37,697 nt of DNA from a phage. The position numbers and the translations under genes were made by a program. The stretch lies in the NCBI GenBank assembly GCA_020318295.1, contig GCA_020318295.1_4859.1. One strand, 5' to 3'. Below, piece by piece: positions 4,601 through 18,009 of this stretch. Below the pieces are notes generated by a model. That model ran no database searches and was not told the DNA's origin. It was given only the letters and a program-made list of their open reading frames with translations. Every line of letters starts with the position of its first letter. Position 1 is the first letter of the stretch.

Positions 4601-5888
4601 CTTTAACTTCGAGTTTCTTCGGATCGATGGTCAGACCTTCGCCGTACGTCTCTTTAGGATTGTACGGGTTGGGTAAGTTTACGAAACGTTTAGAAGATTC
4701 GTTCAGAAACTGATACGCTTTGGCGGTGACGCGGCCCGCTTCTGCCAGGCGCTCAACTTCCTGTTTAATCACAGCATCGTGTGGGATGGTGCGTTCTACG
4801 ACGATGGTGGTTGGTTTGACATCTTCTTTCGGCGCTTCGATGACCAGATCTTCTTTCTCATCGAACTCATGATCGTTCAATGTATCGTCAACGTTGTCGC
4901 TTTGTGTTGCTTCATCGTCGACGATATCGAGGCTTTCTTCCGGTTTACTGGCAACGGTTTCAACAGCATCGTCGTCCTCTCCCAGATGTACGCGTTCATC
5001 CCCTTCCGGTGTAACGAACTCGTCATCTTCGTAGTCGGTAGACGGCGGTGTGGTCATCACCGTAGTCAGTGTACGGTAGAACATTCTGCCCATCTGCACG
5101 TCAGTCAAACGACCACCGGCAGACTTACGCATTCTTTCAATTACACCCATGTTCATGGATGTAAAACCACCGTTGTGTGTGAAGATAAAGTTCACACGAG
5201 ACAGCTGGTTCATGTCCATACCGTCGAACAGGGTTGCTTGCTGATCGCCGTAAGCCCAACCGAACAGTTCCAGTAACCACAGCAGGTTAAAGTCTTTAAA
5301 GTGTTCCAGTTTGGTTTTAACACGATCGTTATACGTCATTTTAAAACGATCGAAAGAAGGCAGTACGTTACCCAGTTCGATGATGTAGTAGTTCTGACGC
5401 ATGTACTCACGTGAGTCAGTTTTCATCTGGTTAGTTATCAGCAGCTGAATGTTGTGCAGACGTTCGTACCAGGACATCAGAGTATCAGGGTAGAAATAAT
5501 GCGGCAGCATCGGGGTGTAGTTTTCGATGAGCAGCACTTTCGGATCGGAACGTACCACGCCGTCTTCAATCATGCGACGAATACGACGGTTGTTACGATG
5601 GTACTGGAAGATTTGGCGCTCTTGACCAACAACCGGTTTCTTACGCGGGTGGCCAATAATGCCGTCTTCAGGCAGCTGGAAGTGGTGACGAATCATCGCC
5701 GGTTTTTCCAGCTGACCAAAACATGGTGTGGTTAACGGTGGTGCTAAAACCACCTGGTCTAAATCGATGGTGTGGTAGATAGAACCACGTGGGAGCTGGA
5801 GCTTCTCCAGCGGGATAATACGCGGACGACCGAACTCATCGGTCTTGCGCACGGTAAAGCGCTGGTTAAACTGTTTCAGAAAAATCAT
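1683..5888 (-). CDS. multisubunit RNA polymerase beta' subunit, C-terminal portion (1401 aa)
   Basis: N-terminus GRPRIIPLEKLQLPRGSIY resembles E. coli beta' GEPIIVPSQDVVLGLYY just after the catalytic loop; FIFTHNGG...RKSAGGRLTDVQMGR resembles the bridge-helix region (FISTHGARKG...TANSGYLTRRLVDVAQD); C-terminal ARIVGSIMRIGTTNAVGY resembles the beta' C-terminal block NVIVGRLIPAGTGYAY. Contains an acidic insertion (DYEDDEF...DDEATQSDNVDD) at roughly 4800..5050. Confidence 0.6.
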   Translation of the reverse strand: MIFLKQFNQRFTVRKTDEFGRPRIIPLEKLQLPRGSIYHTIDLDQVVLAPPLTTPCFGQLEKPAMIRHHFQLPEDGIIGHPRKKPVVGQERQIFQYHRNNRRIRRMIEDGVVRSDPKVLLIENYTPMLPHYFYPDTLMSWYERLHNIQLLITNQMKTDSREYMRQNYYIIELGNVLPSFDRFKMTYNDRVKTKLEHFKDFNLLWLLELFGWAYGDQQATLFDGMDMNQLSRVNFIFTHNGGFTSMNMGVIERMRKSAGGRLTDVQMGRMFYRTLTTVMTTPPSTDYEDDEFVTPEGDERVHLGEDDDAVETVASKPEESLDIVDDEATQSDNVDDTLNDHEFDEKEDLVIEAPKEDVKPTTIVVERTIPHDAVIKQEVERLAEAGRVTAKAYQFLNESSKRFVNLPNPYNPKETYGEGLTIDPKKLEVKAEPKKIERLVTDEAWAENTTDQIIRQYNQEIFPKDVLGAVASSQRLGLAIHNHTVEKEISVTGNIEHHTLRIQPIGGEPTTVRFSIPALTEDGTWVANGVEYTMRRQRVDLPIRKVSHDTVALTTAYGKNFVRRSDKVVNDYGRWLTNAIITRAVDPKNTEITDAKLANVFDPLSKLPRQYTEVARRVAAFNAIGYQWNFDIKQKAAFFNEGQLADADRVELVPVAKKPRSHVIVGMDKNSQLYRVDKDKTEPLGTLAEVFGVDTSKAPREMTELSLMGKSISLGFVFAYYLGLTGMLKHFGISYEVLSVGQRIDKGQFDSIIRLQDAKIAIVCENDQQRMIVNGLDRYIKHFTTYTESEVDREDIYLNLLRDADGLTPRYIKELKLMRTAFVDDMHARILRKMGEPETFIGLLERSNELLQTDHTLPEINGDEMMFIGNQRISYHIYTAMVRAMRNYNNAPNSNRKFELTQDMVWGAINSDPSVLLAPGANPVQNIKEKDVVTMGGTGGRNRKTMVYSTREFQPSDLGIVSGNTVDNGDVGITAFATNNPRYDTVDGTTFKKDLDKLKPGEALSFIDGLVPDTLMDDAKRQNFVGIQFGSATSCVGATTTPYRTEQEKFVAHRTSVKHARVIDKPGKIVEVLNDHVKIKYDDGEEEAFPLGRWFGPHEGTYYPHTLVTKWKRGDKLPAGAVITYNEQHFEPDIYDPTQVSFKNGILATVALIEGEEVIEDSNAISERFAAKAEADVTKLKEVTMTFTQNLLEMVKEGDHVDVDSILCTFTDNLTGDMSGFSKEAAETLRELSSFAPRSGVRGFIDKIEVVYHGEVEDMTPSLAEMVRKYDRIRRKTALALKRDEPKDGRVNGDFRVEGVPLAYNSLCVRFYITHRVEMAAADKMVIANQLKTTVQEVMYGTNKTEDGQELDIIFGRDSVDARIVGSIMRIGTTNAVGYRGGENIGRILDGEDVPALPAKIN

Positions 5889-5906
5889 ACATGTGCCTTA
5901 TGGGTA

Positions 5907-7520
5907 TCATTTCAACAGCGCAGCAGTCGTTCTTTTAATCACGTTGTTAACCGGATTGATTTTGAAACTGCCGTCTGTTGCAAACCAGTAGTTTTTCGAA
6001 CTGACCCACTTCCGATTTTCCTCGAGCGCTTCGGTTGACATCGGGCAGTTTGCTGAGCCGGTGTCACCATCGTAGTCACCACCCAAGCCCCCTAATCGGG
6101 ATGGGTGCGGTGCCATGGATTCCACAAAGGTTTTCACGGTACGGTCAGGGAAGCTAATTGCACCCTTCTCTTTTAACGTGACCCAATCGTCTTCCAGTTC
6201 ATGCAAATAGAGGGAAGAGGTGGTGGTCTCCAATCTTATGGTCGAGGAGTAAGTCGAACCGCGTCCCGTAACCGGATAACGCGTGATGAACGAGAAGTAG
6301 TCATTCCAAATATCGTAACCTGACAAATAGAGGAGTTCCGCTAAGCTCAGTCCGCGGACAAGCTTACGGTCACGTCCTTCCGGCAGGTCTTCAATATCGT
6401 AAAAGATTTTGAAGCTGCGTTTGTCCTGGTAGATTAATGCCACGTAATGGTCCGGATCAATCATCAGCGGTTTATGTCGAAGCTCGCGCGCTTCCATTCT
6501 GTTGATGAGCGTTTCGATGCCATCGTCGGTAGTGAAAAGGTCATACACCCGCCCGGAGACTTCCAGGAACTCACGCTTGAGTGTTTTGGTGTTAACGCCG
6601 TATAAGTTACCGTCCCCTGCCCGGATGTTACTGAGGTAACGTTCACGGATGTGGTATTGAGCCACAGGCAGTAATGCCTTCAGGGTTTGGTACAAACCGA
6701 TACGGGTATCCGTTGGACGAATCGCATCTTCGCGACCCATGACCTTGGAACCGGTTGAGAATGAAGACAGTACGTTACGCGTACCGTTCATTAACTTACG
6801 TGACGTCACTTTACGACGTGCAAAACCACCTTTACCGTCTTGGATGTTGAAAAAGTACATCCAGATATCATTAAAGGTTTGTTGGAGCTTCCAGCGAACC
6901 GGGTCAGTCAGTTCCGTTCGCGTACTGCGGTCGGGGATTGCACGTGCCAGAGAAATCAGACGGCGGTAGAGTCCGCCAATCTCTTCTTCTTGGTCGCGGC
7001 CATCCTGACGAATGACCAAATCACGTAATCCCGCAGGCAGAACCAGCACATAGCGGCTGAGACTGACCGGACGGAACTTATTGAAGAAATCGACTGTCTC
7101 GTCGCGACGCATCGATTCGTTGCGTCCCGGTGTCAGTTGTTCGTAGTAGCGTAGGAAGAAGTTGAAGCCGGTGTCTGCACCTTTATCACTGGGCAGAGCC
7201 GGCTCGAAGTCTTTTTCTTTCTCATTCCAGATAGCGAATCGCTTCCCGGAACAGATTTCTTCGTACAGCTGTTTCAGCTGGAACAATGCCAAACAAACGG
7301 TCGGTGAAATGATATCCAGTTTGATATCAATGTACGAGAACGTTGAGTCTCGTGCTTCGCTCCCTGTGAGGCCAAAAATTTCGGTTGAATACAGTCCTTC
7401 AGGGTGAAAGTTTTTCGTCAGTCCCTGAAAGGTGTCTGTTGTTGTAACTGGTTTTAAATGCGACACCAGGGACTTGTTGACGTTTAACAAGTAAAAGTCA
7501 ACCCAGTTTAGCTTTCTCAC
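5907..7520 (-). CDS. multisubunit RNA polymerase beta' subunit, N-terminal portion with DxDGD catalytic motif (537 aa)
   Basis: YVLVLPAGLRDLV...DG...GGLYRRLISLA resembles E. coli beta' [20 protein letters not shown]...LYRRVINRN; GKGGFARRKVTSRKLMNGTRNV resembles [28 protein letters not shown] at 6063..6077 sits where NADFDGD does. GTG start with AGGAG 9 nt upstream. Confidence 0.7.
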   Translation of the reverse strand: MRKLNWVDFYLLNVNKSLVSHLKPVTTTDTFQGLTKNFHPEGLYSTEIFGLTGSEARDSTFSYIDIKLDIISPTVCLALFQLKQLYEEICSGKRFAIWNEKEKDFEPALPSDKGADTGFNFFLRYYEQLTPGRNESMRRDETVDFFNKFRPVSLSRYVLVLPAGLRDLVIRQDGRDQEEEIGGLYRRLISLARAIPDRSTRTELTDPVRWKLQQTFNDIWMYFFNIQDGKGGFARRKVTSRKLMNGTRNVLSSFSTGSKVMGREDAIRPTDTRIGLYQTLKALLPVAQYHIRERYLSNIRAGDGNLYGVNTKTLKREFLEVSGRVYDLFTTDDGIETLINRMEARELRHKPLMIDPDHYVALIYQDKRSFKIFYDIEDLPEGRDRKLVRGLSLAELLYLSGYDIWNDYFSFITRYPVTGRGSTYSSTIRLETTTSSLYLHELEDDWVTLKEKGAISFPDRTVKTFVESMAPHPSRLGGLGGDYDGDTGSANCPMSTEALEENRKWVSSKNYWFATDGSFKINPVNNVIKRTTAALLK

Positions 7521-7549
7521 TTTTAAGCTCCTGAATTGGAAGAAACATT

Positions 7550-10500
7550 ATGGCAAAAAGAGGCAAAGACGGTTTCGATGATATCGATTTAGATAGACTC
7601 GACGACTGGGATGATTTCGGTGAACCACCCCGTCCCAAAGACGAGAAAAAACGAAGCCCGATACTCAGTACCCTGAATGTTGCCAGGAAGTCGGCGTTGT
7701 CAACTATCTGGCCAGAAGGGAAACGTGACCAAGTTATCCTCAAGGGGATGCCTAAGCCGGCAGCTGATGCATACGAGGGCTATCAGTCAGCGGCAGCTGC
7801 AGCAAAGGACATTTACGCCCATACGAAAGGGGAGCTTGAGAAGACCGAGCGCACGCTGAAGATGCAAGCGCGTCAACTCGGTCCGACAATGAAGAAATAC
7901 TTGCCGGATGCAGTTACTAAACGCTTCGACAAGTGGTCAAAATCTGACCAGTTAGATTACCAGAACTACGATCCGAATCAGGCATTGATGGATCGTGAAC
8001 TGGGCGACGTATTCTCAGGTGTGCCAAAGGACGCCGATGAGCAACGTCAGCTGCAGGATCGCATGGTAGAGGACAAGCTCCGTGACAGCATCAAAGAGAT
8101 GCGCGCGGATGCAATGCACCAAACCATGATTGGGATGGCGAAAGATATTAACCTGTTAACCGGGTTAAGCCGTGGGGTATTCTTAAACATCGAGCGTAAG
8201 AAGCTCGAATTGCAATACCGCACCCTGTTCGCCATTCAAGACATCGTGAAGATGAAGCAGTCGGAGTTCGATCGTAACACGCCTGCTTTAGAAGCCATCG
8301 TGAAGAACACGGCACTGCCGGATTACGCGAAGGAAGATTTCTCAGAAGTCCGTTGGGCGAACGTTAAACGCCAGGCTGCGGAATGGATGAACCCGTTGCG
8401 TTATGCTGACGGGTTTATGGACATGATTCGCGAAAATACCAAGAAGAAAATTTCTGGTATATTTGGCGAAGGTCGTGGTTTGTTAGAGTCCGTTCTCGGC
8501 ATGGGTGTTGAAGACGATTTCGGCATGAGCGATAGCTCTTCGTTGACTGCCGAACGTCGCAAAACAAATGCTCGCGATAAAGCAACTGCATGGGGTAGCG
8601 GATTCCTTGCGAAGAAACTACTCGGCCCACAAATCGAGAAACTCCAGAAATGGACTCGTGAGGAGATGGAGAAAAATCCAGAGGTCATGAAACGCCTGCA
8701 GAAGGGCGCGTTCACCTTTGGTAATCTTTCCTCTATCTCGAACTCAGCTATCGCAGGCGAAACGCAAGGACCGTTGGCGGATTTGTTCCGGGTATTGAAT
8801 GAACTCGGTATTGTCCAACCGTTAAACCGCGAGAAAGCTTTTCTTGATGAGCGTAATGGCGAAACGTTAAGCCGTTCGGCGAAGTTTGACCGCAAAGCGT
8901 ATCTTAGCATAGTTGAAGTTATTCCTGCCTGGCTGGCAGAGATTAACAAATCTGTTCGTCGTGGCTATGGCGAACATGCCGACCTGGAATATGACATCAC
9001 TAGCCGTGGTTTCGTAGACCGCAAAGTGGTCGGTAATCGTGTACGAAAAGCGGTTGCAAATGATGAGCAGCGTCTGCGTCTTCAGAATTCCATTAATAGC
9101 ACTGTGGATTTTGTTGACCGCGGCAAAACACTCTCGCAGAAGGATCGTCAGCATCTTGCCGACTATATTGAGTCGCGTGCCTCGCAGGGCCGTGCATTCG
9201 ACGTAGAAGCAATTTTGAAAGACCCGATGCATCTTCATCGGTATATGCCAGGAAACTCTGCAGAACGCATTAAGGAAGCGTTACAGGGGCATTCTGATAG
9301 CCTGGTCGGTGGTAGCAACGAATTAAGTAACGAACTGGCACGCAAAATCTCCACAGTGCAGTCATCTATCACCCAACGTCAGGCAATTATCGACGAGGCG
9401 GTGAATATTTACGGCGAGCGAGCGTTGCGTGATGCGGGTATCTTTAACTACGACGCGAAGAGTGACACCTTCGGCGTGGATAAAGACCTGTCCGATCCCT
9501 ATACCTTGTTTAATGACTTGGCGATGGGTAAGACACGCAGCGGGCGTGCATTGACTCGTGACCAGGAGATTCAACGTAAGCTGCAAAATGGTTCGGCGTT
9601 AGGCGACTATCTGCGCCGAATGAACCAAGGGGCAAGTGGTGGTGCCGATGACACGTCGTTACCGCCGGCTTTACGTGGCGGTGGTAAAGGCCGCGGAATG
9701 TCGCCTCGGCAGCTAGCCGCGGTTCTCTACGGTGAAACCTCGACTAACTTTGTTGAATTGTTGAGTCAACGTAACCGTGGCGAAGAAGCGCCACGGAATA
9801 ACTTTGACGGTATCATCGAAGCGATTCGTGGTAACAACAACAGTGACACTCTCCAGAAAATTCTGGAACACGTCAGAAGTATGGACGAAGAAGGGGTTCT
9901 CCTGGCTTCGTTAGCAGGGGGTGCTGGTTCTGGTGATGAAGAAATGGGTCCGCCTCGCCCTGGCGGTGGTAGCGGTGGCGGTAGACGCCGTCGTATTATC
10001 ATCGGTGAGGATGGGCTTATTCGTCGTTGGGGTGGTGTGTTGTTCGACACCGCAGCAGGAATCGGTGGCTTTGCGAAACGTGGTGTTAAGGGTGCCTGGA
10101 ATAAACTGAACCAGTTCGGTGGCTGGGCACGCGGTAAAGTCGCAGGAATGGGTGGCGGAGAAGGTCCTGGTTTCTTAACCCGGATGCGTGGCCTTATTAG
10201 TGGTAGTGTCCGTGGGGGCTTTGAAGCAGTAAGCTCTTTCGGTAAAGGACTACTGGGTATCCGCGACATTTACGATGACCACGGTAATGTTGTTCTGCAG
10301 GGCGCACGCCTGGAAGCTGGGGAATACTACCAGGTTATTGATGGTAAGATGGTTCAGTTGAAAACACTGGACGACATCAAGCTGGGGAGCGACATTGTTG
10401 ACTCCGCAGGTAATCTGGTATTAGCGGCCGCTGACTTAGCCGCAGCCGGTAAACTCCGCTACTATAAAGGCGGGAAAATCCAAGCGCTGACCCAAGGTCT

Positions 10501-13500
10501 GGCCAGTAAGATTGGTTTAGGCTTTAATAAGGTGGCTAAGCTACCGAAACGGTTCCTGGATTTCCTGTCACCAAAAGCGGGCAGCATCGTTGGTAAGATT
10601 AAGGACTGGCTGAACGAGATTCCGGAAGGCGAAGAAAAGACACGCCTCCAGAAAGCGTTCAATCGCGTAACGAGCTTGCCGGGTAAAGTGCTCGGTTTTG
10701 CGAAACGTGGTGTCGATCGTCTGAAAGACATGATTACCGACAACCCACTGACGCGTTGGTGGAAAGGCCGTAAAGATGGTGGGGGTGGTGGTTTCAGTCT
10801 CTTCTCATCAACCGGCAAGAAAACCAACCACATCCTTATCCGTATCTATAAACTGTTGAACCAACGTTTACCGGGCGATCCGGAAGACGAAAGTTGGACA
10901 GAGGAAATGGAGAAGGGCGTCGGGGGTGGCGGTAGTACGATCGGTCGTGCAGTACGCGGGGCGTATGATCGTGCGAAAGCGTCATTGTCTGAACGTTTTG
11001 GTGGACGTTGGTCAAGAACAAAAGCGTTCTTTGGTCGTGGACGTGACCGCCTGCGTGGTTGGTTCAGTGGTTTCCGAGGCCGGGCTGGGGATATGCTCGA
11101 TGGATATCGTGGAGCACGACACGACATTGCTACACGTTACGAAGTTGAACGTCGGTTGGCTGGACGCGATGACGATGTTGCTGAGTTTTATCGCAGCCAT
11201 TTGAACGCGAAAGGTGGCCTTTCTGGCCGTAAAGTCTACGGCGATGCGAAGGAAGACCTTGAGACCGCCCGTGATGCAGCAGGGAGGGTTATCAACAAAG
11301 GGAAGAATGCCGCCAAGTCAGCAGGTGCAAGGTTATTCGAACGCTTGGACCGAATGATTGGCTTGCAAGAGATGTCGTGGTTTAACACCATGCGCGAATC
11401 AGTATCCCGTGCAGGTGGCGACGATGGCATTATTCGTACCATGTTTGCGAAGTTCGGTAAACGTAACAAGCCGCCTGAAGGTGATGAAAAACGCGACTAC
11501 TTTAACTTCTTCAAACGTTGGCGTGAGAAACGTAAGGAGAAGAAAGAGAAAGCGCAGGGCTCCAAAGGGAAATCTGGCGGTCTGTGGGATATGGTGAAAG
11601 GCTTACCTATCATCGGTCCCATCGTCAGTATCTTGGGAACTGTGGGTAATATACTCGGTTCTATCACGAAATGGGGTGTGTTAAAACCCGTAGGTCTTTT
11701 AGGTAAGGCTGCGTGGAACGTTGGTAAGTTCGCAGTAACCCGTTTGGCGGCACCCGCGGTGTCCGCTGTGGCAACTGCAGCGTCTGCCGTCGTGACAGCA
11801 GTGGGCTGGCCGGCAATTCTTATCGGTGGCGCGATCGCTGCGGCAGGTTACGCCGCGTACAAGATCGCAACGACTACCTATACCCAGTACCTGGATAAGA
11901 TGCGTTTAGCTCAGTACGGTTTCCGTGATTACGATAAGTGGTCGTCGGACGACGGGGCGAAGGCGCGTTACTTAGAAGACGCATTGCGTGAGTATGTGTC
12001 TTACGCGGAAGATGGCCAAGCCAGTCTCCGCGGGCTAAGTGGAAAAGACGTTCAGAAGTTAGCTGAAGGGTTCGGTATCAACGTTGAGGAAAAAGGCGAG
12101 ATGTTGGCCTTCCAAGCGTTTATGCTTCAGCGCTTCATTCCGATTTATCTCCGCTGGATTACGGCACTGAAATCGATGCCGAACAGTATCCAGTTGGCTG
12201 ACGTCGGCGACGCGAAGAAAGTATCGAAAGAGGACATGCAGACACTCTTCAACAAAATGAAGATGACTAAGGATGCAAAAGCGTTCTCTTCGTTAACTGA
12301 CCCACGCAAAGTCAACCAAGGTTTCTTCTCGAAAGCTTGGGACGTTGTAACCTTTACACCGAAGGAGTTTTTGAGCGGTGAAGAGGTTATGGAAGTGCAG
12401 AATGAAGTTGAGCGTGCAATCAAGTTCAGAATGGACGATAAGAAAGCACGTAAGTACGGAATGGCACCGGCTGTAGAGGGGATTAAGTCCGCGGGCGTTG
12501 ATGAAGCTATCAACAAACTTGGACAGTTGGATAACGAACGTAATAAAAATCTGGCGAAGGTAGAGGGTTGGGAAGACGGAACAGAGCAGGTTCAGATTCA
12601 GGTAGACTGGAATGCGGTGCTCGACCAGAAAGACATGAATGCGATGGAGTCGGTACGTTGGAAGACTTATGGTTTTACCACCATCGACAACGCCACACGC
12701 ACGTTGATTACGGTATTCGAGAAAAACGTCATCAAAGACATTGACGTGAAAACCGCAAGCTACAAAGGTGATTGGAAGAAAGCAATCGCCTCAATGGTTC
12801 CAGACGCTATCGGCACACCGAAAGAAGATCGTTTGAAGCGGTGGTTCTTTGACCGTTTCTTACCGGTATTCATGACGTACTTGGTTGGGGTGAAACGCTA
12901 CCTGCCAACAGCTGATCCGCTGAACTTGAAACTGACCGGCGGTTACCTGTACGAAATCAGTTTGATGATGTCAACAGCTTATAGCTTGAAGGGCGGTATA
13001 AGACAGTCGGTGTGGGAAGTGAATATCAACCCATTAGGGGGCGATGCTAACACTAATCCGTTGTCTATCAAAGCCGAGCTGGAAACGCTGAAGCTGTTGT
13101 CAAAAGAAGCTGACCTTGCCGTGCGTAACATGATTAAAGCCATTAAAAATAATGGCAAGCGTGCACGCTGGAAGGATCGTAACAAGAACCGCAGTTCTCT
13201 GGAAGTCACCGGTGAAGATGAAGAAGACTCGAACATCAGTTCGGGAGATTCTTTGTCATCTGACGGTGCTCGCGCCTCAGGCTACATTCCATCGGGCACG
13301 AGTGGCGGTGTGCCGGGTAACTTAGGTCAAGTCGTCGATGCGGTCGGTGGTGTGCGGAACTACGCTGCAATGACCACTGGTTCGTCTTCGATTAACCTGA
13401 GTGATGTGAAAGACGGTGATTATAAGTCACTGGCTGAAAAATACCCGATAGAAATGTTGGGTAGAAAGGGTGCGTTGAACGTTCCGAATATCAAAGCATT

Positions 13501-14671
13501 GATTACCGATGCAGCGAACATGATGGGCGTGCCACCTGCAGTGGCGTTAGCAATGGCTAAGGCGGAGTCCGGATTTAACTACACCGCTAAAAACCCGTAT
13601 GCTTCGGCGTCTGGGTTGTTCCAGTTTGTTAACGGCACGTGGGACGGGATGATGAAGGGGTATTCGCGGAAGTTTGGTATTCCGCGTGTTAACCAGATGG
13701 ACCCGTGGGCGAATGCTATCTTGGGTGTGCAGTTCATTCGTGACAACATCCAACAAGCACAACGTGACCTGGGTGGTAAAGCACCACCTCCAGCCGTGGC
13801 TTATCTGTACCACTTCCTAGGTGCAGGCGGCGGTAAGAAATTCCTGGAAGCGTGGAAGCGTAATCCGAATATGGCGGCATCGAGTGCTCCTGGGATTACA
13901 TCTGCAATACTGAGAGGGAATGCCAACGTCTTCTACAGCAACGGTCGTATACGTAGCGTAGATGGGGTTATTCAGGAACTGAACCGCCGCATGGGTGCAA
14001 TTTCCGCCAACGAAGTCGCCGCCGATCCGAGCAAGACGAAGGATATGGTTGCAGGATTGTCGCCTAATTCACCAACCAACCCGGCAGCAGCAATGGGTGC
14101 ACCGGCCGCTAATGACCCGAGTCTGTCGCCAGCAGATAACCTGCCAGCAGATAATGCTAATCGTCGTGATGACGCATTGACGCAGAAAGGGGCCATGGCG
14201 GCACAAGATGCAATGGCTACCGCCGCAGGTAATGTAGGACCAGCAGCACCTACACCAACCACAGGCGGTACCGGAACATCCGATGCCTCAACAACGGCCG
14301 AAACCGTAGCGTCGCAAGCTGCAGCAGAAGGATTGTCTGCGACGGATGTTGCTAAAGTGAAAGCAGGCGCGGAAGCGCAGGTTAACGCAGCAGCTCGTCC
14401 AGTTGCCGCTCCAACTTCTGATGCTACAGCATCGACGCCAACGCTGAATGGTGACCCGATAGATGTTCAGCAGCTCAAGGTACTGATTCAGTCTCGCGAT
14501 TACTTGAAAGAGATTCGTGATATTTTGAAATCAAATCCAAGAGCGGCAAACGACACACGGGGTGGTAGTATCCAGCAAGCGGCAAATGTGCCTCCTCCTG
14601 GCTCAGCTGCACGTAGGCAGGAAATAACCCAACCGACACCGTCGTTAAACGTAAGTCGGAAAGCAAGCTAA
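7550..14671 (+). CDS. giant virion-associated protein (2373 aa) with C-terminal lytic transglycosylase domain; resembles phiKZ gp181-type proteins
   Basis: Single uninterrupted 7.1 kb ORF. Gly-rich low-complexity tracts at about 9900..11100, a long hydrophobic Gly/Ala-rich segment at about 11590..11870 (GLPIIGPIVSILGTVGNILGS...AILIGGAIAAAGYAAYKI), an SLT-like block near 13.5 kb, and an Ala/Pro/Thr-rich tail at about 14080..14450. Confidence 0.8.
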   Translation: MAKRGKDGFDDIDLDRLDDWDDFGEPPRPKDEKKRSPILSTLNVARKSALSTIWPEGKRDQVILKGMPKPAADAYEGYQSAAAAAKDIYAHTKGELEKTERTLKMQARQLGPTMKKYLPDAVTKRFDKWSKSDQLDYQNYDPNQALMDRELGDVFSGVPKDADEQRQLQDRMVEDKLRDSIKEMRADAMHQTMIGMAKDINLLTGLSRGVFLNIERKKLELQYRTLFAIQDIVKMKQSEFDRNTPALEAIVKNTALPDYAKEDFSEVRWANVKRQAAEWMNPLRYADGFMDMIRENTKKKISGIFGEGRGLLESVLGMGVEDDFGMSDSSSLTAERRKTNARDKATAWGSGFLAKKLLGPQIEKLQKWTREEMEKNPEVMKRLQKGAFTFGNLSSISNSAIAGETQGPLADLFRVLNELGIVQPLNREKAFLDERNGETLSRSAKFDRKAYLSIVEVIPAWLAEINKSVRRGYGEHADLEYDITSRGFVDRKVVGNRVRKAVANDEQRLRLQNSINSTVDFVDRGKTLSQKDRQHLADYIESRASQGRAFDVEAILKDPMHLHRYMPGNSAERIKEALQGHSDSLVGGSNELSNELARKISTVQSSITQRQAIIDEAVNIYGERALRDAGIFNYDAKSDTFGVDKDLSDPYTLFNDLAMGKTRSGRALTRDQEIQRKLQNGSALGDYLRRMNQGASGGADDTSLPPALRGGGKGRGMSPRQLAAVLYGETSTNFVELLSQRNRGEEAPRNNFDGIIEAIRGNNNSDTLQKILEHVRSMDEEGVLLASLAGGAGSGDEEMGPPRPGGGSGGGRRRRIIIGEDGLIRRWGGVLFDTAAGIGGFAKRGVKGAWNKLNQFGGWARGKVAGMGGGEGPGFLTRMRGLISGSVRGGFEAVSSFGKGLLGIRDIYDDHGNVVLQGARLEAGEYYQVIDGKMVQLKTLDDIKLGSDIVDSAGNLVLAAADLAAAGKLRYYKGGKIQALTQGLASKIGLGFNKVAKLPKRFLDFLSPKAGSIVGKIKDWLNEIPEGEEKTRLQKAFNRVTSLPGKVLGFAKRGVDRLKDMITDNPLTRWWKGRKDGGGGGFSLFSSTGKKTNHILIRIYKLLNQRLPGDPEDESWTEEMEKGVGGGGSTIGRAVRGAYDRAKASLSERFGGRWSRTKAFFGRGRDRLRGWFSGFRGRAGDMLDGYRGARHDIATRYEVERRLAGRDDDVAEFYRSHLNAKGGLSGRKVYGDAKEDLETARDAAGRVINKGKNAAKSAGARLFERLDRMIGLQEMSWFNTMRESVSRAGGDDGIIRTMFAKFGKRNKPPEGDEKRDYFNFFKRWREKRKEKKEKAQGSKGKSGGLWDMVKGLPIIGPIVSILGTVGNILGSITKWGVLKPVGLLGKAAWNVGKFAVTRLAAPAVSAVATAASAVVTAVGWPAILIGGAIAAAGYAAYKIATTTYTQYLDKMRLAQYGFRDYDKWSSDDGAKARYLEDALREYVSYAEDGQASLRGLSGKDVQKLAEGFGINVEEKGEMLAFQAFMLQRFIPIYLRWITALKSMPNSIQLADVGDAKKVSKEDMQTLFNKMKMTKDAKAFSSLTDPRKVNQGFFSKAWDVVTFTPKEFLSGEEVMEVQNEVERAIKFRMDDKKARKYGMAPAVEGIKSAGVDEAINKLGQLDNERNKNLAKVEGWEDGTEQVQIQVDWNAVLDQKDMNAMESVRWKTYGFTTIDNATRTLITVFEKNVIKDIDVKTASYKGDWKKAIASMVPDAIGTPKEDRLKRWFFDRFLPVFMTYLVGVKRYLPTADPLNLKLTGGYLYEISLMMSTAYSLKGGIRQSVWEVNINPLGGDANTNPLSIKAELETLKLLSKEADLAVRNMIKAIKNNGKRARWKDRNKNRSSLEVTGEDEEDSNISSGDSLSSDGARASGYIPSGTSGGVPGNLGQVVDAVGGVRNYAAMTTGSSSINLSDVKDGDYKSLAEKYPIEMLGRKGALNVPNIKALITDAANMMGVPPAVALAMAKAESGFNYTAKNPYASASGLFQFVNGTWDGMMKGYSRKFGIPRVNQMDPWANAILGVQFIRDNIQQAQRDLGGKAPPPAVAYLYHFLGAGGGKKFLEAWKRNPNMAASSAPGITSAILRGNANVFYSNGRIRSVDGVIQELNRRMGAISANEVAADPSKTKDMVAGLSPNSPTNPAAAMGAPAANDPSLSPADNLPADNANRRDDALTQKGAMAAQDAMATAAGNVGPAAPTPTTGGTGTSDASTTAETVASQAAAEGLSATDVAKVKAGAEAQVNAAARPVAAPTSDATASTPTLNGDPIDVQQLKVLIQSRDYLKEIRDILKSNPRAANDTRGGSIQQAANVPPPGSAARRQEITQPTPSLNVSRKAS
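13480..13900 (+). other. lytic transglycosylase (SLT family) domain within the giant protein
   Basis: MGVPPAVALAMAKAESGFNYTAKNPYASASGLFQFVNGTWDG...AYLYHFLGAGG: the catalytic E-S dipeptide followed by a GLFQF block, as in family-1 lytic transglycosylases and phage gp16-type virion lysins. Domain boundaries are approximate. Confidence 0.7.
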
Positions 14672-14674
14672 TCG

Positions 14675-14696
14675 TAGGGGGTGGCAACACCCCCTA
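14675..14696 (+). other. perfect 9-bp stem hairpin with GCAA (GNRA) tetraloop, 3 nt after the giant-gene stop
   Basis: TAGGGGGTG-GCAA-CACCCCCTA read directly from the sequence; it overlaps the GTG at 14681 that the ORF track uses as the start of the next gene. Confidence 0.5.
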
Positions 14697-14719
14697 ATCA
14701 TCTTACAGAGAGGTTTTAC

Positions 14720-16942
14720 GTGGAAGCAAGACAACTAAAAGATTCAGGATGGGTAACCGGCCTGTTTGGCGGTACAACCGCACAGCGCGATGAGCGCTTC
14801 CTGGGTTTGCGTCGTTACTCTAACGCGATGCTCTCGTTTGAAGATACCACGATGGGTGGTTCGCAAGCGTTAAATGCGCCGCCGCAGTTTACGATGTTTG
14901 CTGATCCGAGTTCAACAGGTGCCTTTGCACAACCTGATGCGGGTCGTGGCTCGTACTCAAAGTACGTTAAAGGTCAAGACCAACGTGGTTCCTATCGTCT
15001 AGGGACTTTCTATTACGAAGCTATTAACCAAAACAGTTTTTATCTTCATTGTCGTTTCGGTAAACCCCGATACATCGGGGTCGCTGCATTCTTCGCGAAT
15101 ATGTACGATTCCAACCTAGCGTACCTGGCACGCACGGGTGATTACCCAGGTATGTTACGTGCGATGGGGACGTATGTTGCCGCCGCAGCAATATGGGCTG
15201 CAGTAGGCACGGTTGCCTTTGCGGTTATTCTGATTACGCCACGTATGTTGAAGATGGTGCTGAACAAGCAGACTTCTCGCTACTACTACGTGAAACCGAC
15301 AATGCATTTGTATCTGCGCGCTGTGCAGAATATGGTCAATACCCAGTTAGTTTATCGCCGATTGGTACCAACGGGTGTGTTAGGGACTTTCCAGCTTGCT
15401 AATGCTGTAGATGGGTCTGAGAAAGGCGGTACTGCTAATAAGTACAACGGCGACCGCAAAGAGTGGTACTCCATGCTGCCAGAAATCTGGACAGCTGATG
15501 GTGAGTTCGATATCTATCGAATGATTAACCGCTACCAAACATTAGCCAACTACCAGGCGAAAACCATCGATAAAATTCGTAAAGAGTCGAGTAACGAAGA
15601 GGACATGGCTCGTCGTTTGCGAAACTTCTATCTGGAAGCGACGTACTCAACAACCCATTTGGAGAAAGCTGCGCAGTACGAGGTTTCTTTACGTAACCTT
15701 GAATACGTAGCCAAAGCCGGTAAAGGGTACGATGCCGGTTTTGAAAACGTCGATAACAAAGAAGACGAACTGGTAGCAGGGATGAACGGAAGCATTCAGG
15801 ATGCTCAGTCACAAGGAGGTAAAGCTGAAAACTTCGAAAACGAAGGTGATGCGCAACGTAAAGAGCTTGCCGAGCGTATGGCACAGGTTGAAAAGAACCA
15901 GGCTCAGGTTGCTAAAAGTCAGACCGAAGCAAACTCAATGGATGAGAATAATCTCGACATTGGGAAGATTGAAAACTGGATGGACCAAGGCCAGAAAGAA
16001 TCTGTCGGTAGCGTCTTCAAAGACTATATCGATATTTTAGAAGGCGCTATGGATGGGTTAACTTCGAACATCGCTTCGGAGATACGCAATGGTTCGCAGT
16101 GGATTACTTGGCGTGTTGATGGACGTGATACCGTAGGGCGTTCGTTCTCCAACACCACCAAAGAACCTGAAATCTCTGGCACGGTTAACTCTGCCACACA
16201 GAAAGCACGTTCTTTGGAAGTAAACCTCTCCGGTGGTAAGACTGGTTTCGACGCAGTCGATGGTCTCATTACTGGGTTGAAGTCCGCCTTTACAGGCGCA
16301 CTCGATTTCTTGCATTTATCAGGGATTATGTCACTGTACAACTCGTCGGTGATTGACTTCCCGGAAGTGTGGGACTCCTCAGACACCTCAGGTGACGATA
16401 TCTCGCTAAGTATTCCCCTTCGCTGTTGGTCGGGTAACGACTTAGATGTGTTTCAGGATCTGATTGTCCCGTTGTCGTTCTGGTTAGCGGCAGTTTGTCC
16501 GCTAGCAACCGGTAAACAATCGTTTACACACCCGTTCTATCTGGAATGTTATTCTCGCGGTCGTTATTCCATGCGTAATGCCATGGTAACTAACCTGAGT
16601 CTCCAGTTCGGTACAGGTGGTTTAGGTTGGCGTGCTGACGGTCTGCCGTTGTCGTGTGATATACAGGTAACTATTCGTGACCTGTCGCGCGTCATGTACA
16701 TGCCGATTGTAACTGATATTGGTGTGTTTGATGATGATAACAAGTTCAGTGAATTTATGTCTGTGTTGGGCGCTGCCACGCTTTACGAGCGTACCAACGG
16801 TATCGCGCAGGCTAAAATCAATGCGTCTATCTGGGCGCAGAACTGGGCAAGTGCTTGGTCGCAGGGTAGCATCGTCAACGCCGCCTTAGATATCATACCA
16901 GCCCGACAAATCGCGAACATTTTCCTACCACAAGCGCGTTAA
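14720..16942 (+). CDS. hypothetical protein, possible virion or membrane protein (about 740 aa; ORF track start 14681)
   Basis: Long ORF. I prefer the in-frame GTG at 14720, preceded by AGAGAGG plus a 6-nt spacer, over the track's GTG at 14681, which lies inside the hairpin. Contains a hydrophobic segment AAAAIWAAVGTVAFAVILITP. No recognisable catalytic motif. Confidence 0.6.
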   Translation: MEARQLKDSGWVTGLFGGTTAQRDERFLGLRRYSNAMLSFEDTTMGGSQALNAPPQFTMFADPSSTGAFAQPDAGRGSYSKYVKGQDQRGSYRLGTFYYEAINQNSFYLHCRFGKPRYIGVAAFFANMYDSNLAYLARTGDYPGMLRAMGTYVAAAAIWAAVGTVAFAVILITPRMLKMVLNKQTSRYYYVKPTMHLYLRAVQNMVNTQLVYRRLVPTGVLGTFQLANAVDGSEKGGTANKYNGDRKEWYSMLPEIWTADGEFDIYRMINRYQTLANYQAKTIDKIRKESSNEEDMARRLRNFYLEATYSTTHLEKAAQYEVSLRNLEYVAKAGKGYDAGFENVDNKEDELVAGMNGSIQDAQSQGGKAENFENEGDAQRKELAERMAQVEKNQAQVAKSQTEANSMDENNLDIGKIENWMDQGQKESVGSVFKDYIDILEGAMDGLTSNIASEIRNGSQWITWRVDGRDTVGRSFSNTTKEPEISGTVNSATQKARSLEVNLSGGKTGFDAVDGLITGLKSAFTGALDFLHLSGIMSLYNSSVIDFPEVWDSSDTSGDDISLSIPLRCWSGNDLDVFQDLIVPLSFWLAAVCPLATGKQSFTHPFYLECYSRGRYSMRNAMVTNLSLQFGTGGLGWRADGLPLSCDIQVTIRDLSRVMYMPIVTDIGVFDDDNKFSEFMSVLGAATLYERTNGIAQAKINASIWAQNWASAWSQGSIVNAALDIIPARQIANIFLPQAR

Positions 16943-16964: not shown

Positions 16965-17516
16965 ATGAGTTTATTTGGAAAGACCGCAAAAGAGCTGGTT
17001 TACGATCTCATCGTGTCTCAGAATCCTGCACTGACTGGTAAGGGCGTGACCATCGATAAATTGTCGTTCGGTAACCCGGCACACATCACCGCAGCCGATC
17101 CTGACCCAGAGCAATACACCAGACTGAACACCAACCTTGATGTTTCTGGTATCATTGAGAAGGGTACGTTCGGTAAGATGGGTCTTACTTATCGACGATT
17201 GGACGTAGCACATTTGTTTGAGAACGTCGTGTTGTCTGTCGATGGCACCGGCGTGTCGACCGCTGCCGATCTTGTTCCCTTGCTGCGAACCAAATACAAT
17301 TGGTTAATCGACGCAACCGAGATTTACGCGACAGAATCAATGACTTCCTCCACGAAACACAATCTGCGTTTCAATGGAAAGTCACTGGCGTGGACGGGTA
17401 CGGTTGAAGTTTATTTGACCGAAGTTCCGAGCGATGGTGTCGATATCAGTAAACTGATTACCGTTACTGAGTTGAACGGTCTGGTTTATGACGTTTCCGA
17501 CATGGCTCAAGCGTAA
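16965..17516 (+). CDS. hypothetical protein (183 aa)
   Basis: ORF with GAGG upstream of the ATG, immediately followed by an intrinsic terminator. Confidence 0.55.
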   Translation: MSLFGKTAKELVYDLIVSQNPALTGKGVTIDKLSFGNPAHITAADPDPEQYTRLNTNLDVSGIIEKGTFGKMGLTYRRLDVAHLFENVVLSVDGTGVSTAADLVPLLRTKYNWLIDATEIYATESMTSSTKHNLRFNGKSLAWTGTVEVYLTEVPSDGVDISKLITVTELNGLVYDVSDMAQA

Positions 17517-17533
17517 CAAAAAAATAAGTAATG

Positions 17534-17576
17534 CGAGTACCCCGTTAGGGGTACTCGTTTGCTTTTATTTTTTAGC
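17534..17576. terminator. bidirectional rho-independent terminator between convergent genes
   Basis: Stem CGAGTACCCC / GGGGTACTCG with loop GTTA, followed by TTTGCTTTTATTTTTT on the plus strand and preceded by an A-run that reads as a T-run on the minus strand. Confidence 0.7.
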
Positions 17577-18009
17577 GTTCGATAATCACTTTTACGATAT
17601 CTTCTACCGGAGGGTAATACCACAACACCACACTGTTTCGTCCCAAGTCTTTTGGAAACGTTTGGCAATATGCAATGTCGGTGCCGAAGCGCTCAGAGAG
17701 CTTTAAAACGTTCTCTGGGAACTGACAACCACCACGCCAGTCGTGTGTATAGAGTACCTGCTGTAATAACTTCACATTAGCATCGAAGAAGTACAGATTT
17801 TCTACCGGCGCAATGTGTGGTACCGGAATTGGTGTGTCGGTGAGTACGAACTCCAAACCACCGCATTGTTCTGAACGCTCCGCTAGGAATTTCAGATGCC
17901 ATGGCATTAGACCGTGGTCTTCCCAGACGATATTGTTGACCAGTAAACGATCAGCGTATTCGTCGTAATCAACCGTGAACAGTTTCTTCGCCATCGGTAA
18001 ACGCCTCAT
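17572..18009 (-). CDS. hypothetical protein (145 aa; start may be the internal Met at 17994)
   Basis: ORF in the minus-strand block; its stop lies in the T-tract of the terminator. Confidence 0.5.
   Translation of the reverse strand: MRRLPMAKKLFTVDYDEYADRLLVNNIVWEDHGLMPWHLKFLAERSEQCGGLEFVLTDTPIPVPHIAPVENLYFFDANVKLLQQVLYTHDWRGGCQFPENVLKLSERFGTDIAYCQTFPKDLGRNSVVLWYYPPVEDIVKVIIER

Follow-up and report, generated by a model that had tools for sequence, protein, structure and literature searches.

The open reading frame at positions 7550-14671 (+ strand) of the 37,697-nucleotide stretch of phage DNA analysed here, referred to as the window, encodes a giant tail protein of the gp181/gp239 family of phiKZ-like (Chimalliviridae) jumbo phages, which probably acts as a tape measure fused to an envelope-penetration module. 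The protein is not new, as it has already been described as SPN3US gp239 and phiKZ gp181. Small additions to what is known are a ~100-aa helical module present in two related copies, the size and length conservation of the family, and the exchange of lytic domains in some of its members; the domain map drawn here leaves the current picture unchanged.

Identity of the gene and its neighbourhood

The window derives from a Seoulvirus, an SPN3US-like jumbo phage, showing 96-99% nucleotide identity to phages of this type and having Salmonella phage 1252 as its nearest deposited genome (98.9% nt). The single 7.1 kb frame of 2373 aa named in the original prediction, an earlier reading of this DNA, is borne out: it opens with an ATG at the start annotated for SPN3US, and its N-terminus (MAKKGKDDFDD...) is kept among homologs. 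The product is 99.1% identical in amino acid sequence to SPN3US gp239 (AEP84072.1) over the full length, with strain-level differences only and the same neighbours; in GenBank, gp239 carries the label 'putative tail fibre protein'. The gene and its surroundings comprise the following features.

1683-7520, - strand: two divergent virion RNA polymerase (vRNAP) subunit genes, by homology, arranged alike in phiKZ and 201phi2-1
1683-5888, - strand: SPN3US gp241 homolog, vRNAP subunit
5907-7520, - strand: SPN3US gp240 homolog, vRNAP subunit
7550-14671, + strand: complete ORF, 2373 aa, ortholog of SPN3US gp239 and phiKZ gp181 by aa/nt identity and BLASTP
14675-14696, + strand: perfect 9-bp GC-rich hairpin right after the stop codon (centroid -18.1 kcal/mol)
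14720-16942, + strand: homolog of SPN3US gp238 and phiKZ gp182, the baseplate 'spacer' ring (BLASTP against phiKZ-type gp182, E 1e-40)
16965-17516, + strand: SPN3US gp237 homolog (DUF7941; PHROG 'virion structural protein'), third co-oriented gene
17533-17558, no strand assigned: strong bidirectional terminator-like hairpin closing the three-gene cluster, with a stem of 11 bp and, on the + strand, a T-run behind it

Only 29 bp separate the vRNAP genes from the start of the ORF, and the gp238 homolog likely starts at the GTG at 14720, which is preceded by GAGAGG. The gene directly downstream thus codes for a hub-proximal baseplate ring protein: in the 2026 phiKZ structural atlas gp182 sits between the tube initiator and the hub, and SPN3US gp238 is described as essential and tail-associated. 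For the third gene, gp237, no detectable relationship to phiKZ gp184 was found. Searches in and around the ORF returned no tRNAs, Rfam families or meaningful tandem repeats, and as a sigma-70 scan gave fewer sites than in shuffled sequence, no promoter was assigned.

Sequence and gene order show that the protein is a true ortholog of phiKZ gp181. When it is compared by BLASTP with gp181 of fnug, a phage of the phiKZ species whose protein measures 2237 aa, two regions align, aa 12-603 with E 7e-15 and aa 1383-2148 with E 2e-29, and PHROG 3201 is matched with 2453 bits. Both the resemblance to phiKZ gp181 and the position divergent from the beta' genes had been proposed in the original prediction, and both are confirmed, with N- and C-terminal parts aligning and synteny kept by divergent vRNAP genes upstream and a gp182 homolog downstream in the two phages. 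phiKZ gp181, a structural peptidoglycan hydrolase of 2237 aa, has the same flanking genes, and in it the hydrophobic block, the helical modules and the SLT domain follow one another in the same sequence; it differs in its low identity (~16-24%), in being 136 aa shorter, and in a central Gly-rich and a C-terminal low-complexity region that are unalignable.

The family comprises about 1,190 clusters, and protein length is conserved in it at ~2.1-2.6 kaa. Lengths span 2094-2862 aa among 94 homologs of 22-99% identity, and 139 of the best 150 matches in an exhaustive profile search measure 2006-2763 aa. Full-length proteins (96 in total) were aligned with MAFFT FFT-NS-2. A divergent, seemingly rearranged counterpart in SPFM1 and SPFM20 was set aside, its form in SPFM20 being an artefact of the sequence record.

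Domain architecture

Composition, alignments, profile searches and AF2 models divide the protein into the following regions, all on the + strand.

7550-9619: conserved N-terminal region of mainly alpha-helical character, aa 1-690 (AF2 model, alignment)
9620-10261: Gly-rich, variable, predicted disordered region, aa 691-904 (composition, pLDDT below 50, indels)
10262-10474: small beta-rich domain, aa 905-975 (AF2 strands, pLDDT 67-77)
10475-11587: helical, basic, Gly-containing region, aa 976-1346 (composition, AF2, alignment)
11588-11869: hydrophobic Gly/Ala-rich block, candidate membrane-insertion segment, aa 1347-1440 (hydropathy, homologs)
11882-12208: helical module copy 1, aa 1445-1553, motif R..AQYG...LE...RFIP.YL (AF2 pLDDT 84-94)
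12635-12931: helical module copy 2, aa 1696-1794, motif R.K.YG...E...WF..RFLPVF (AF2, hhalign)
13499-13999: GH23/SLT lytic transglycosylase domain, aa 1984-2150 (Pfam, phmmer, Foldseek)
14000-14479: Ala/Pro/Thr-rich low-complexity linker, aa 2151-2310 (46% A+P+T, poorly conserved)
14480-14668: C-terminal amphipathic helix (aa ~2320-2345) and conserved terminal peptide ...TQPTPSLNVSRKAS (homolog C-termini)

After the SLT domain, aa 1-690 form the most conserved part of the protein, aligning to aa 26-631 of phiKZ gp181. The AF2 model of the N-terminal part (m25a93c83576c), although of low confidence with a mean pLDDT of 51, predicts 77% helix in aa 1-430, with long helices at aa 69-109, 162-253, 258-316 and 334-401 and a better-defined domain at aa ~350-690 (pLDDT 70-86 at aa ~490-660). 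Over aa 1-1190 the predicted helix amounts to 65%, likewise at low confidence, with helices of up to 92 residues. An N-terminal profile matched none of the solved structures.

Gly-rich tracts follow at aa ~690-900 and 1050-1200, with Gly making up 32% of aa 790-889, 23% of aa 690-900 and 17% of aa 651-1250; aa 691-904 carry many indels among distant homologs, and the region contains no tandem repeat at the DNA level. These tracts had been anticipated directly before the SLT domain; their presence is confirmed, while the region lies ~800 residues upstream of it. The beta-rich domain is characterized by the motif RDIYD..GNVVL.G.KLEAGEYYQ...DIVD..GN.VL..ADLA.AGKL.YYKGGK with the invariant columns G903, G912, L916, G924, Y926, I943 and G954, and a second ~80-aa copy pair, missing from the 2373-aa protein, occurs in relatives at a greater distance. 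The basic region ends in a Lys/Arg-rich stretch (26% K+R, aa 1251-1346) directly before the hydrophobic block.

This block of ~94 aa corresponds to the ~90-residue hydrophobic Gly/Ala-rich stretch that had been noted originally. Its best 90-aa Kyte-Doolittle window has a mean of 1.16, above all 1000 shuffles (maximum 0.83), while the single 19-aa window (1.91) is unexceptional alone. A comparable block was found in 93 of 94 homologs at ~55-62% of their length, the best-conserved element being 'AVGWPAILIGGAIAAAGYAAYKIAT' at aa ~1416-1440. The block is a candidate for insertion into a membrane, as the original prediction had suggested.

Two copies of a ~100-aa helical module follow. Their relationship is marginal in plain BLASTP (E 0.022), and the internal duplication is instead indicated by profile-profile comparison, in which hhalign relates copy 1 to copy 2 with 97% probability and E 4e-11. 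In copy 2, R1703, Y1707, G1708, W1765, R1769 and P1772 are invariant in an alignment of 15 sequences of 22-77% identity (alignment A1). Neither a profile search with the middle module nor Foldseek against the PDB matched the modules to a solved structure.

By sequence and predicted fold, the SLT region is a genuine GH23 lytic transglycosylase domain whose catalytic Glu is intact. The SLT-type block AESGFNY...GLFQF proposed near residue 2000 is recovered by Pfam PF01464 at aa 1984-2072 with E 2.1e-9 and 37.4 bits, well above the cut-off of 21.3. Among solved relatives, phiKZ gp144 (3bkh, 9xps_S; phmmer E ~2e-15) comes closest to the catalytic domain, in structure as well as in sequence. Glu2006 (codon 13565-13567) in 'AESGFNY' aligns with position 115 of phiKZ gp144, the catalytic Glu of that enzyme; E2006, S2007 and the GLFQF element (aa 2022-2026) are invariant in alignment A1. 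phiKZ gp144, an endolysin or neck-associated lytic transglycosylase located at the neck whisker ring in the phiKZ atlas, differs in its size of 260 aa and in having a peptidoglycan-binding domain at its N-terminus. The AF2 model of the domain (pLDDT ~80-89) displays a goose-lysozyme-like alpha-helical fold, and Foldseek retrieves 3bkh first (E 2.6e-7), then MltF, MltE, Slt70, goose-type lysozyme and phi6 P5. Muralytic activity of phiKZ gp181 itself is reported in a review (PMC5380687). In some family members the lytic domain is swapped or an extra one (GH19, M23, VanY) is added, which argues that selection acts to keep a wall-hydrolysing activity at this position.

An Ala/Pro/Thr-rich tail had also been predicted; this composition applies to the linker at aa 2151-2310, while the last ~60 residues form the conserved helix and terminal peptide. 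Their layout is common to homologs down to phiKZ gp181 and 201phi2-1 gp276, and by analogy with the T5 and 80alpha tape measure proteins they may constitute a hub-docking element.

The domain map also bears on the tail fiber function given for this family in GenBank records and PHROG 3201, a reading whose probability we regard as practically negligible and which we reject. Apart from these database labels nothing speaks for it: the Pfam scan, the AF2 models and Foldseek show no fiber-like, beta-helical or receptor-binding domain, and a hydrophobic block together with an SLT enzyme is atypical of tail fibers. In phiKZ the fibers are made of the gp131-135 paralogs, and gp145/146 appear as putative tail fibers in a transposon study. 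The label has the look of a propagated annotation.

Role in the virion

SPN3US gp239 (259 kDa) was found by mass spectrometry in virions and not in tailless particles, and was named tail tape measure protein by the same authors from the Thomas laboratory (PMC5105663, PMC5694885, PMC10052503). On this literature for a 99.1%-identical protein, the product of the ORF is a component of the tail rather than the head, and its earlier classification as a virion protein holds. gp239 is the largest virion protein of SPN3US, and phiKZ orf181 is the largest gene of the phiKZ genome and essential; for gp239 and gp181 together, essentiality has been either demonstrated or assumed, and gp181, like gp239, has been detected in virions.

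Another reading takes the product for an internal ejection protein that is packaged in the head and works in the manner of T7 gp16. The SLT domain is homologous to that of T7-like internal virion protein D (33-36% identity, E ~1e-19), gp16 is likewise large and ejected to span the envelope, and SPN3US-like phages package many ejection proteins in the head. However, gp239 is absent from tailless, DNA-filled heads, whereas T7 gp16 is kept in the head core and lacks a ruler function. The domain order is moreover reversed, as had been pointed out in the original prediction: the SLT domain of T7-like protein D is N-terminal (aa ~22-189 of 1441) and that of the protein studied here occupies aa 1984-2150 of 2373. 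We consider a head-packaged protein exceedingly unlikely and reject this assignment.

How well a tape measure would match the dimensions of the tail varies with the part of the protein that is counted. At 1.5 Å per residue, aa 1-1346 would extend over ~202 nm, compared with 200 nm for the phiKZ tail, which the SPN3US tail is said to resemble in length; this fit depends on choosing aa 1-1346, including the non-helical Gly-rich and beta segments, and the full 2373 aa would reach 356 nm, far above the ~200 nm tail. Three copies would occupy ~13% of a lumen of 68 Å x 2000 Å.

The excess length is one reason to consider that the protein is solely a tail-carried, ejected effector that cuts the wall and inserts into the membrane, with tail length set by something else. 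The sizeable non-helical parts (the Gly-rich aa 691-904, predicted to be disordered, and the beta domain of aa 905-975) point the same way, as does the result that none of the curated tape-measure families in Pfam and NCBIfam is matched; the NCBIfam search added nothing further, and the one tape-measure hit is a weak match to PHROG 1533 over aa 1355-1573 (E 7e-4). Many tape measure genes lie next to frameshifted genes for tail assembly chaperones; here the divergent vRNAP genes are found upstream instead, but this weighs little because gene order is scattered in phiKZ-like phages. Against an effector without ruler function stand the length, which is tightly kept across a very divergent family, the long helices predicted for the N-terminal half and the adjoining gene for a tube-proximal baseplate ring. 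Furthermore, the groups working on SPN3US and phiKZ proteomics and genetics have named no alternative tape-measure candidate. Taken together, we judge an effector alone to be unlikely and prefer a tape measure that carries the effector modules.

Structural work speaks to an older view, which places phiKZ gp181 and 201phi2-1 gp276 at the tip of the baseplate, in an external needle or puncturing device. A review table lists phiKZ gp181 as a 'needle-like cell-puncturing device' (PMC5380687), and 201phi2-1 gp276 is annotated as 'putative cell-puncturing device'. In the 2026 phiKZ atlas, which covers 40 proteins, the central baseplate nevertheless consists of gp88, gp182, gp101 (hub), gp164 (spike), gp163.1 (tip) and gp174 (pin) and gp181 is never mentioned, while the protein is predicted to be helical with a hydrophobic block and not to contain a beta-helix or OB-fold spike domain. 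We thus reject a needle or spike function as quite improbable. With the puncturing spike of phiKZ built from gp164, gp163.1 and gp101 and gp181 unmentioned, a presumed tape measure in the tube lumen with an ejection role, comparable to T5 pb2, fits better than a puncturing needle. A tape measure and a transglycosylase are likewise absent from the text of the Goslar preprint (2026), and among PDB chains phiKZ gp181 matches none except the paralogous gp144.

Proposed mode of action

A functional precedent is the T5 tape measure pb2, in which a long helical ruler is likewise followed by a hydrophobic stretch and, towards the C-terminus, a muralytic domain. pb2 is kept inside the tail tube until receptor binding triggers its expulsion during infection. 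The two proteins differ in several respects: no sequence homology to pb2 is detectable, T5 is a siphophage, the pb2 enzyme carries a zinc peptidase motif instead of GH23, and pb2 is about half the size and cleaved during assembly, with no cleavage known for gp239.

Modelled on the supposed working of pb2, a few copies of the protein, probably three, would reside inside the tail tube, with aa 1 to ~1346, the N-terminal part with its long helices, stretched out along the lumen and the C-terminal helix and terminal peptide docked near the hub and the spacer (gp238/gp182). Once the sheath has contracted and the spike is lost, the protein would pass out into the periplasm, where the SLT domain could cut peptidoglycan locally. 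The hydrophobic block, following the Lys/Arg-rich stretch, would insert into a membrane and thereby may help to form a conduit for DNA and packaged ejection proteins into the cell.

How phiKZ-like phages bring their DNA, together with a large cargo of proteins, through the envelope is the question behind gp239 and gp181. The protein type was not resolved in the two 2026 structures (phiKZ, Goslar), and it is the obvious candidate for a periplasm-spanning conduit. The domain map provides concrete targets for mutagenesis and focused cryo-EM or cryo-ET, namely the proposed ruler and docking helix as well as the hydrophobic block, the duplicated modules and the SLT domain. As a more speculative extension, which we hold to be possible but rather doubtful, the C-terminal ~1000 residues (Lys/Arg-rich stretch, hydrophobic block, two helical modules, SLT domain and docking helix) might represent a self-contained trans-envelope 'ejectosome' that is fused to the tape measure and builds a channel after expulsion. 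Such a channel would let through a 240-kb genome and also the ejection proteins packaged in the head, which amount to >40 MDa and include the virion RNA polymerase. In that case the duplicated R..YG / RF.P module would represent a new domain, specific to jumbo phages that form a nucleus, which either forms channels or binds peptidoglycan or membranes.

Identity, orthology and location

The giant ORF encodes a protein already known as the SPN3US gp239/phiKZ gp181 type. Its DNA is 98.9 % identical to that of Salmonella phage 1252 and 96–97 % identical to SPN3US and relatives of the genus Seoulvirus, and the encoded protein shares 99.1 % identity with SPN3US gp239. In a BLASTP comparison with gp181 from a phage of the phiKZ species (2237 aa), aa 12–603 (E 7e-15) and aa 1383–2148 (E 2e-29) aligned. 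SPN3US, phiKZ-type fnug and 201phi2-1 share with the window two divergent virion RNA polymerase (vRNAP) subunit genes upstream and a gp182 homolog downstream (E 1e-40). Both the resemblance to gp181 and the position divergent from the beta' genes, as put forward in the original prediction, are thereby borne out, and on these grounds we regard the link to gp181 as true orthology going beyond a common SLT domain. All tested defining features of the SPN3US gp239/phiKZ gp181 orthologous group and of GH23/SLT were found. The phiKZ ortholog is essential, and a review describes it as muralytic (PMC5380687). Our additions are modest: a module duplication, the size and tight length range of the family, swaps of the lytic domain, a C-terminal helix with a terminal peptide, and the observation that this protein has no assigned place in the newest structures.

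The laboratory behind SPN3US genetics and proteomics named gp239 tail tape measure protein; no other virion protein is as large (259 kDa). Mass spectrometry detected it in purified virions, and tailless particles of two different mutants lacked it or contained far less of it (PMC5105663, PMC5694885, PMC10052503). The mass spectrometry of virions proposed as a check has therefore already been performed, on an essentially identical protein, which was detected. Identity and tail location can be considered close to certain. The label tail fiber protein, carried by GenBank and PHROG 3201, was rejected.

Features of the giant ORF and its flanks (window coordinates)
7550–14671, + strand: giant ORF, 2373 aa, uninterrupted; ATG start with GGAAGA just before
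10262–10474 (aa 905–975): small beta-rich repeat domain, DIYD..GN.VL.G..L..G.YY, from AlphaFold2 and alignment
11882–12208 (aa 1445–1553) and 12635–12931 (aa 1696–1794): helical module copies between hydrophobic block and SLT domain
14675–14696: perfect 9-bp GC-rich hairpin, UAGGGGGUG-GCAA-CACCCCCUA, 4 nt past the giant-ORF stop codon
16965–17516: SPN3US gp237 homolog; hits to Pfam DUF7941 (E 3.5e-26) and to a number of PHROG families annotated as 'virion structural protein'
17533–17558: strong bidirectional terminator-like hairpin, 11-bp stem and T-run

Domain architecture

The annotated SPN3US start is the same ATG, and the N-terminal peptide is kept in relatives. Every feature originally listed for the long ORF was recovered, so that the observation is confirmed and its interpretation supported with refinements. 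The Gly-rich tracts exist (32 % Gly in aa 790–889, 17 % across aa 651–1250), albeit not beside the SLT domain but some 800 residues ahead of it; a search of this region (aa 651–1250) for a DNA tandem repeat found none. The Ala/Pro/Thr-rich tail likewise stands for aa 2151–2310 (46 % Ala+Pro+Thr), but not for the final ~60 residues, which form a separate conserved element. Here an amphipathic helix ~40–65 residues from the end is followed by a spacer rich in Pro, Gly and Ser and then by a short peptide at the terminus, a layout recurring as far as phiKZ and 201phi2-1. The whole protein contains no Cys and 0.5 % His, close relatives carrying 0–4 Cys.

For aa 1–1190, AlphaFold2 with an 11-sequence alignment gave a low-confidence model (mean pLDDT 51) with 65 % predicted helix, including helices of up to 92 residues within aa 69–401, a better-defined domain at aa ~350–690 and disorder at aa 691–904. 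Relatives at ≤50 % identity carry an extra ~80-aa copy pair of the beta domain (PDIYVKG...PRL...DITG...GN.IIS...F.LVD.WGR.V), which is absent from the window protein and corresponds to a gap near aa ~1010–1050.

The predicted hydrophobic stretch of about 90 residues was located at aa 1347–1440, preceded by a Lys/Arg-rich stretch (aa 1251–1346, 26 % K+R). Its 90-residue mean hydropathy is 1.16, a value reached by none of 1000 composition-preserving shuffles (maximum 0.83); taken alone, one window of 19 residues would be unremarkable. The best conserved element of the block is AVGWPAILIGGAIAAAGYAAYKIAT. Downstream, AlphaFold2 of aa 1440–2160 (15 sequences, mean pLDDT 72.7) modelled the SLT domain with confidence, together with a pair of similar helical modules and two linkers that are disordered. 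By hhalign one module is a homolog of the other (probability 97 %, E 4e-11), an internal duplication of ~100 aa with the motif R..YG ... LE ... RF.P.Y/F, and neither matched a solved structure.

The SLT block suspected near residue 2000 was recovered by Pfam (PF01464, aa 1984–2072) with 37.4 bits, above the gathering cut-off of 21.3. Among proteins of solved structure, the phiKZ lytic transglycosylase gp144 comes nearest (E ~2e-15), and it was also the best PDB match of the domain fold (E 2.6e-7), followed by MltF, MltE, Slt70 and phi6 P5. E2006 of 'AESGFNY' aligns with position 115 of gp144, the catalytic Glu of that enzyme; the GH23 active site is intact. T7 gp16 has the SLT domain in common (33–36 % identity), but domain order and virion location differ, in agreement with the original remark on domain order.

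Homolog family

Searching 5.8 billion proteins yielded 94 homologs (22–99 % identity) of 2094–2862 aa, with a median of 2401. All but one carry the hydrophobic block, at about 55–62 % of their length and ~550–650 residues ahead of the lytic domain. Conservation is highest in aa 1–650, 900–1000, 1400–1600, 1750–1850 and the SLT domain, and lowest in the Gly-rich region, aa 1100–1300, the aa 1850–2000 linker and the C-terminal low-complexity stretch. Six homologs (P0041, P0043, P0045, P0094, P0084, P0086) feature GH19 (PF00182) in place of SLT, or an added M23 (PF01551) or VanY (PF02557) peptidase domain. As lytic domains are swapped among members, cell-wall hydrolysis at this position is suggested to be the selected function. 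Homolog P0028 has an SLT match slightly under the cut-off, and P0034 retains the E[ST]...G.[FLMW]Q pattern despite lacking a Pfam match.

Searching exhaustively with HMMER, using a profile built from the helical module region, retrieved 1187 cluster representatives at E≤0.001, of which 796 reached E≤1e-10. Since 139 of the best 150 matches are proteins of 2006–2763 aa that carry the modules at a matching relative position, the modules look specific to the giant gp239/gp181-type protein, whose family is large.

Proposed tape measure and ejection model

We consider it probable that this gp239/gp181-family tail protein acts as both length ruler and envelope-penetration conduit, the two roles themselves being plausible but unproven. 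The long-helix N-terminal part would sit in the tail tube as ruler, with the C-terminal end docked near the hub. Upon contraction the protein would be expelled, the SLT domain would open the peptidoglycan, and the hydrophobic block could enter a membrane, helping to form a conduit for DNA and protein. T5 pb2, a tape measure followed by a hydrophobic stretch and a muralytic domain and expelled on receptor binding, works in a similar mode but is not homologous.

At 1.5 Å per residue aa 1–1346 would span 202 nm and the full length 356 nm, so the fit to the 2000 Å phiKZ tail reported in the phiKZ structural paper depends on the part counted; the tail of SPN3US is reportedly about as long. Three copies would fill about 13 % and six about 26 % of the 68 Å lumen. 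In the phiKZ atlas (a 2026 structural paper covering 40 proteins), gp182, whose homolog is encoded directly downstream, forms a ring between tube initiator and hub; in SPN3US the orthologous gp238 is a tail protein and essential. Size, helicity, adjacency to hub-proximal genes and tail location are those of a tape measure, but curated family membership and chaperone synteny are missing: no curated tape-measure profile matched, the sole hit, PHROG 1533 at E 7e-4, falling on the hydrophobic block, and no tail chaperone genes lie alongside the ORF. The main rival, an ejected effector in a tail whose length is set otherwise, would accommodate these absences, and we judge it distinctly improbable. 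A bolder reading, in our view rather unlikely, is that the C-terminal ~1000 residues act as a fused trans-envelope ejectosome built on a new duplicated domain.

In the phiKZ atlas the central baseplate consists of gp88, gp182, gp101, gp164, gp163.1 and gp174, with no mention of gp181 or of a tape measure, which is why the older 'needle' assignment of gp181 is not borne out; the paralogous transglycosylase gp144 is placed at the neck whisker ring. The second 2026 structure, the Goslar preprint, mentions neither tape measure nor transglycosylase, and the PDB has no chain for gp181. A protein in the lumen that departs from the symmetry of the tube would be expected to show up poorly, and T5 pb2 is likewise ill-defined inside its tube.

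Flanking DNA and SPFM records

Since only 29 bp (7521–7549) separate the giant-ORF start from that of the divergent vRNAP subunit gene, both promoters must lie inside neighbouring coding sequences or be of a non-sigma-70 phage type; a sigma-70 promoter scan of this gap found nothing. Downstream, the mechanical start of the next ORF (GTG 14681) falls inside the 14675–14696 hairpin, the SPN3US-consistent start being GTG 14720, preceded by GAGAGG. The 17533–17558 hairpin separates the end of the gp239–gp238–gp237 same-strand cluster from a convergent gene (17572–18009). BLASTP found no similarity between the gp237 homolog and phiKZ gp184.

In the record of Salmonella phage SPFM20 (LR535917.1, 1–10147), consecutive 60-nt blocks map to the window (~13400–15700) in −60 nt steps, so that the record appears to be genuine Seoulvirus sequence whose 60-nt lines run backwards from last to first. 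Its 2364-aa 'tail fiber protein' VFR14562.1 (P0052 in our homolog set) was consequently rejected as a divergent homolog, being a scrambled artefact of reversed ~20-aa blocks. SPFM1 (LR535901.1) gives a similarly weak, partial tblastn match.
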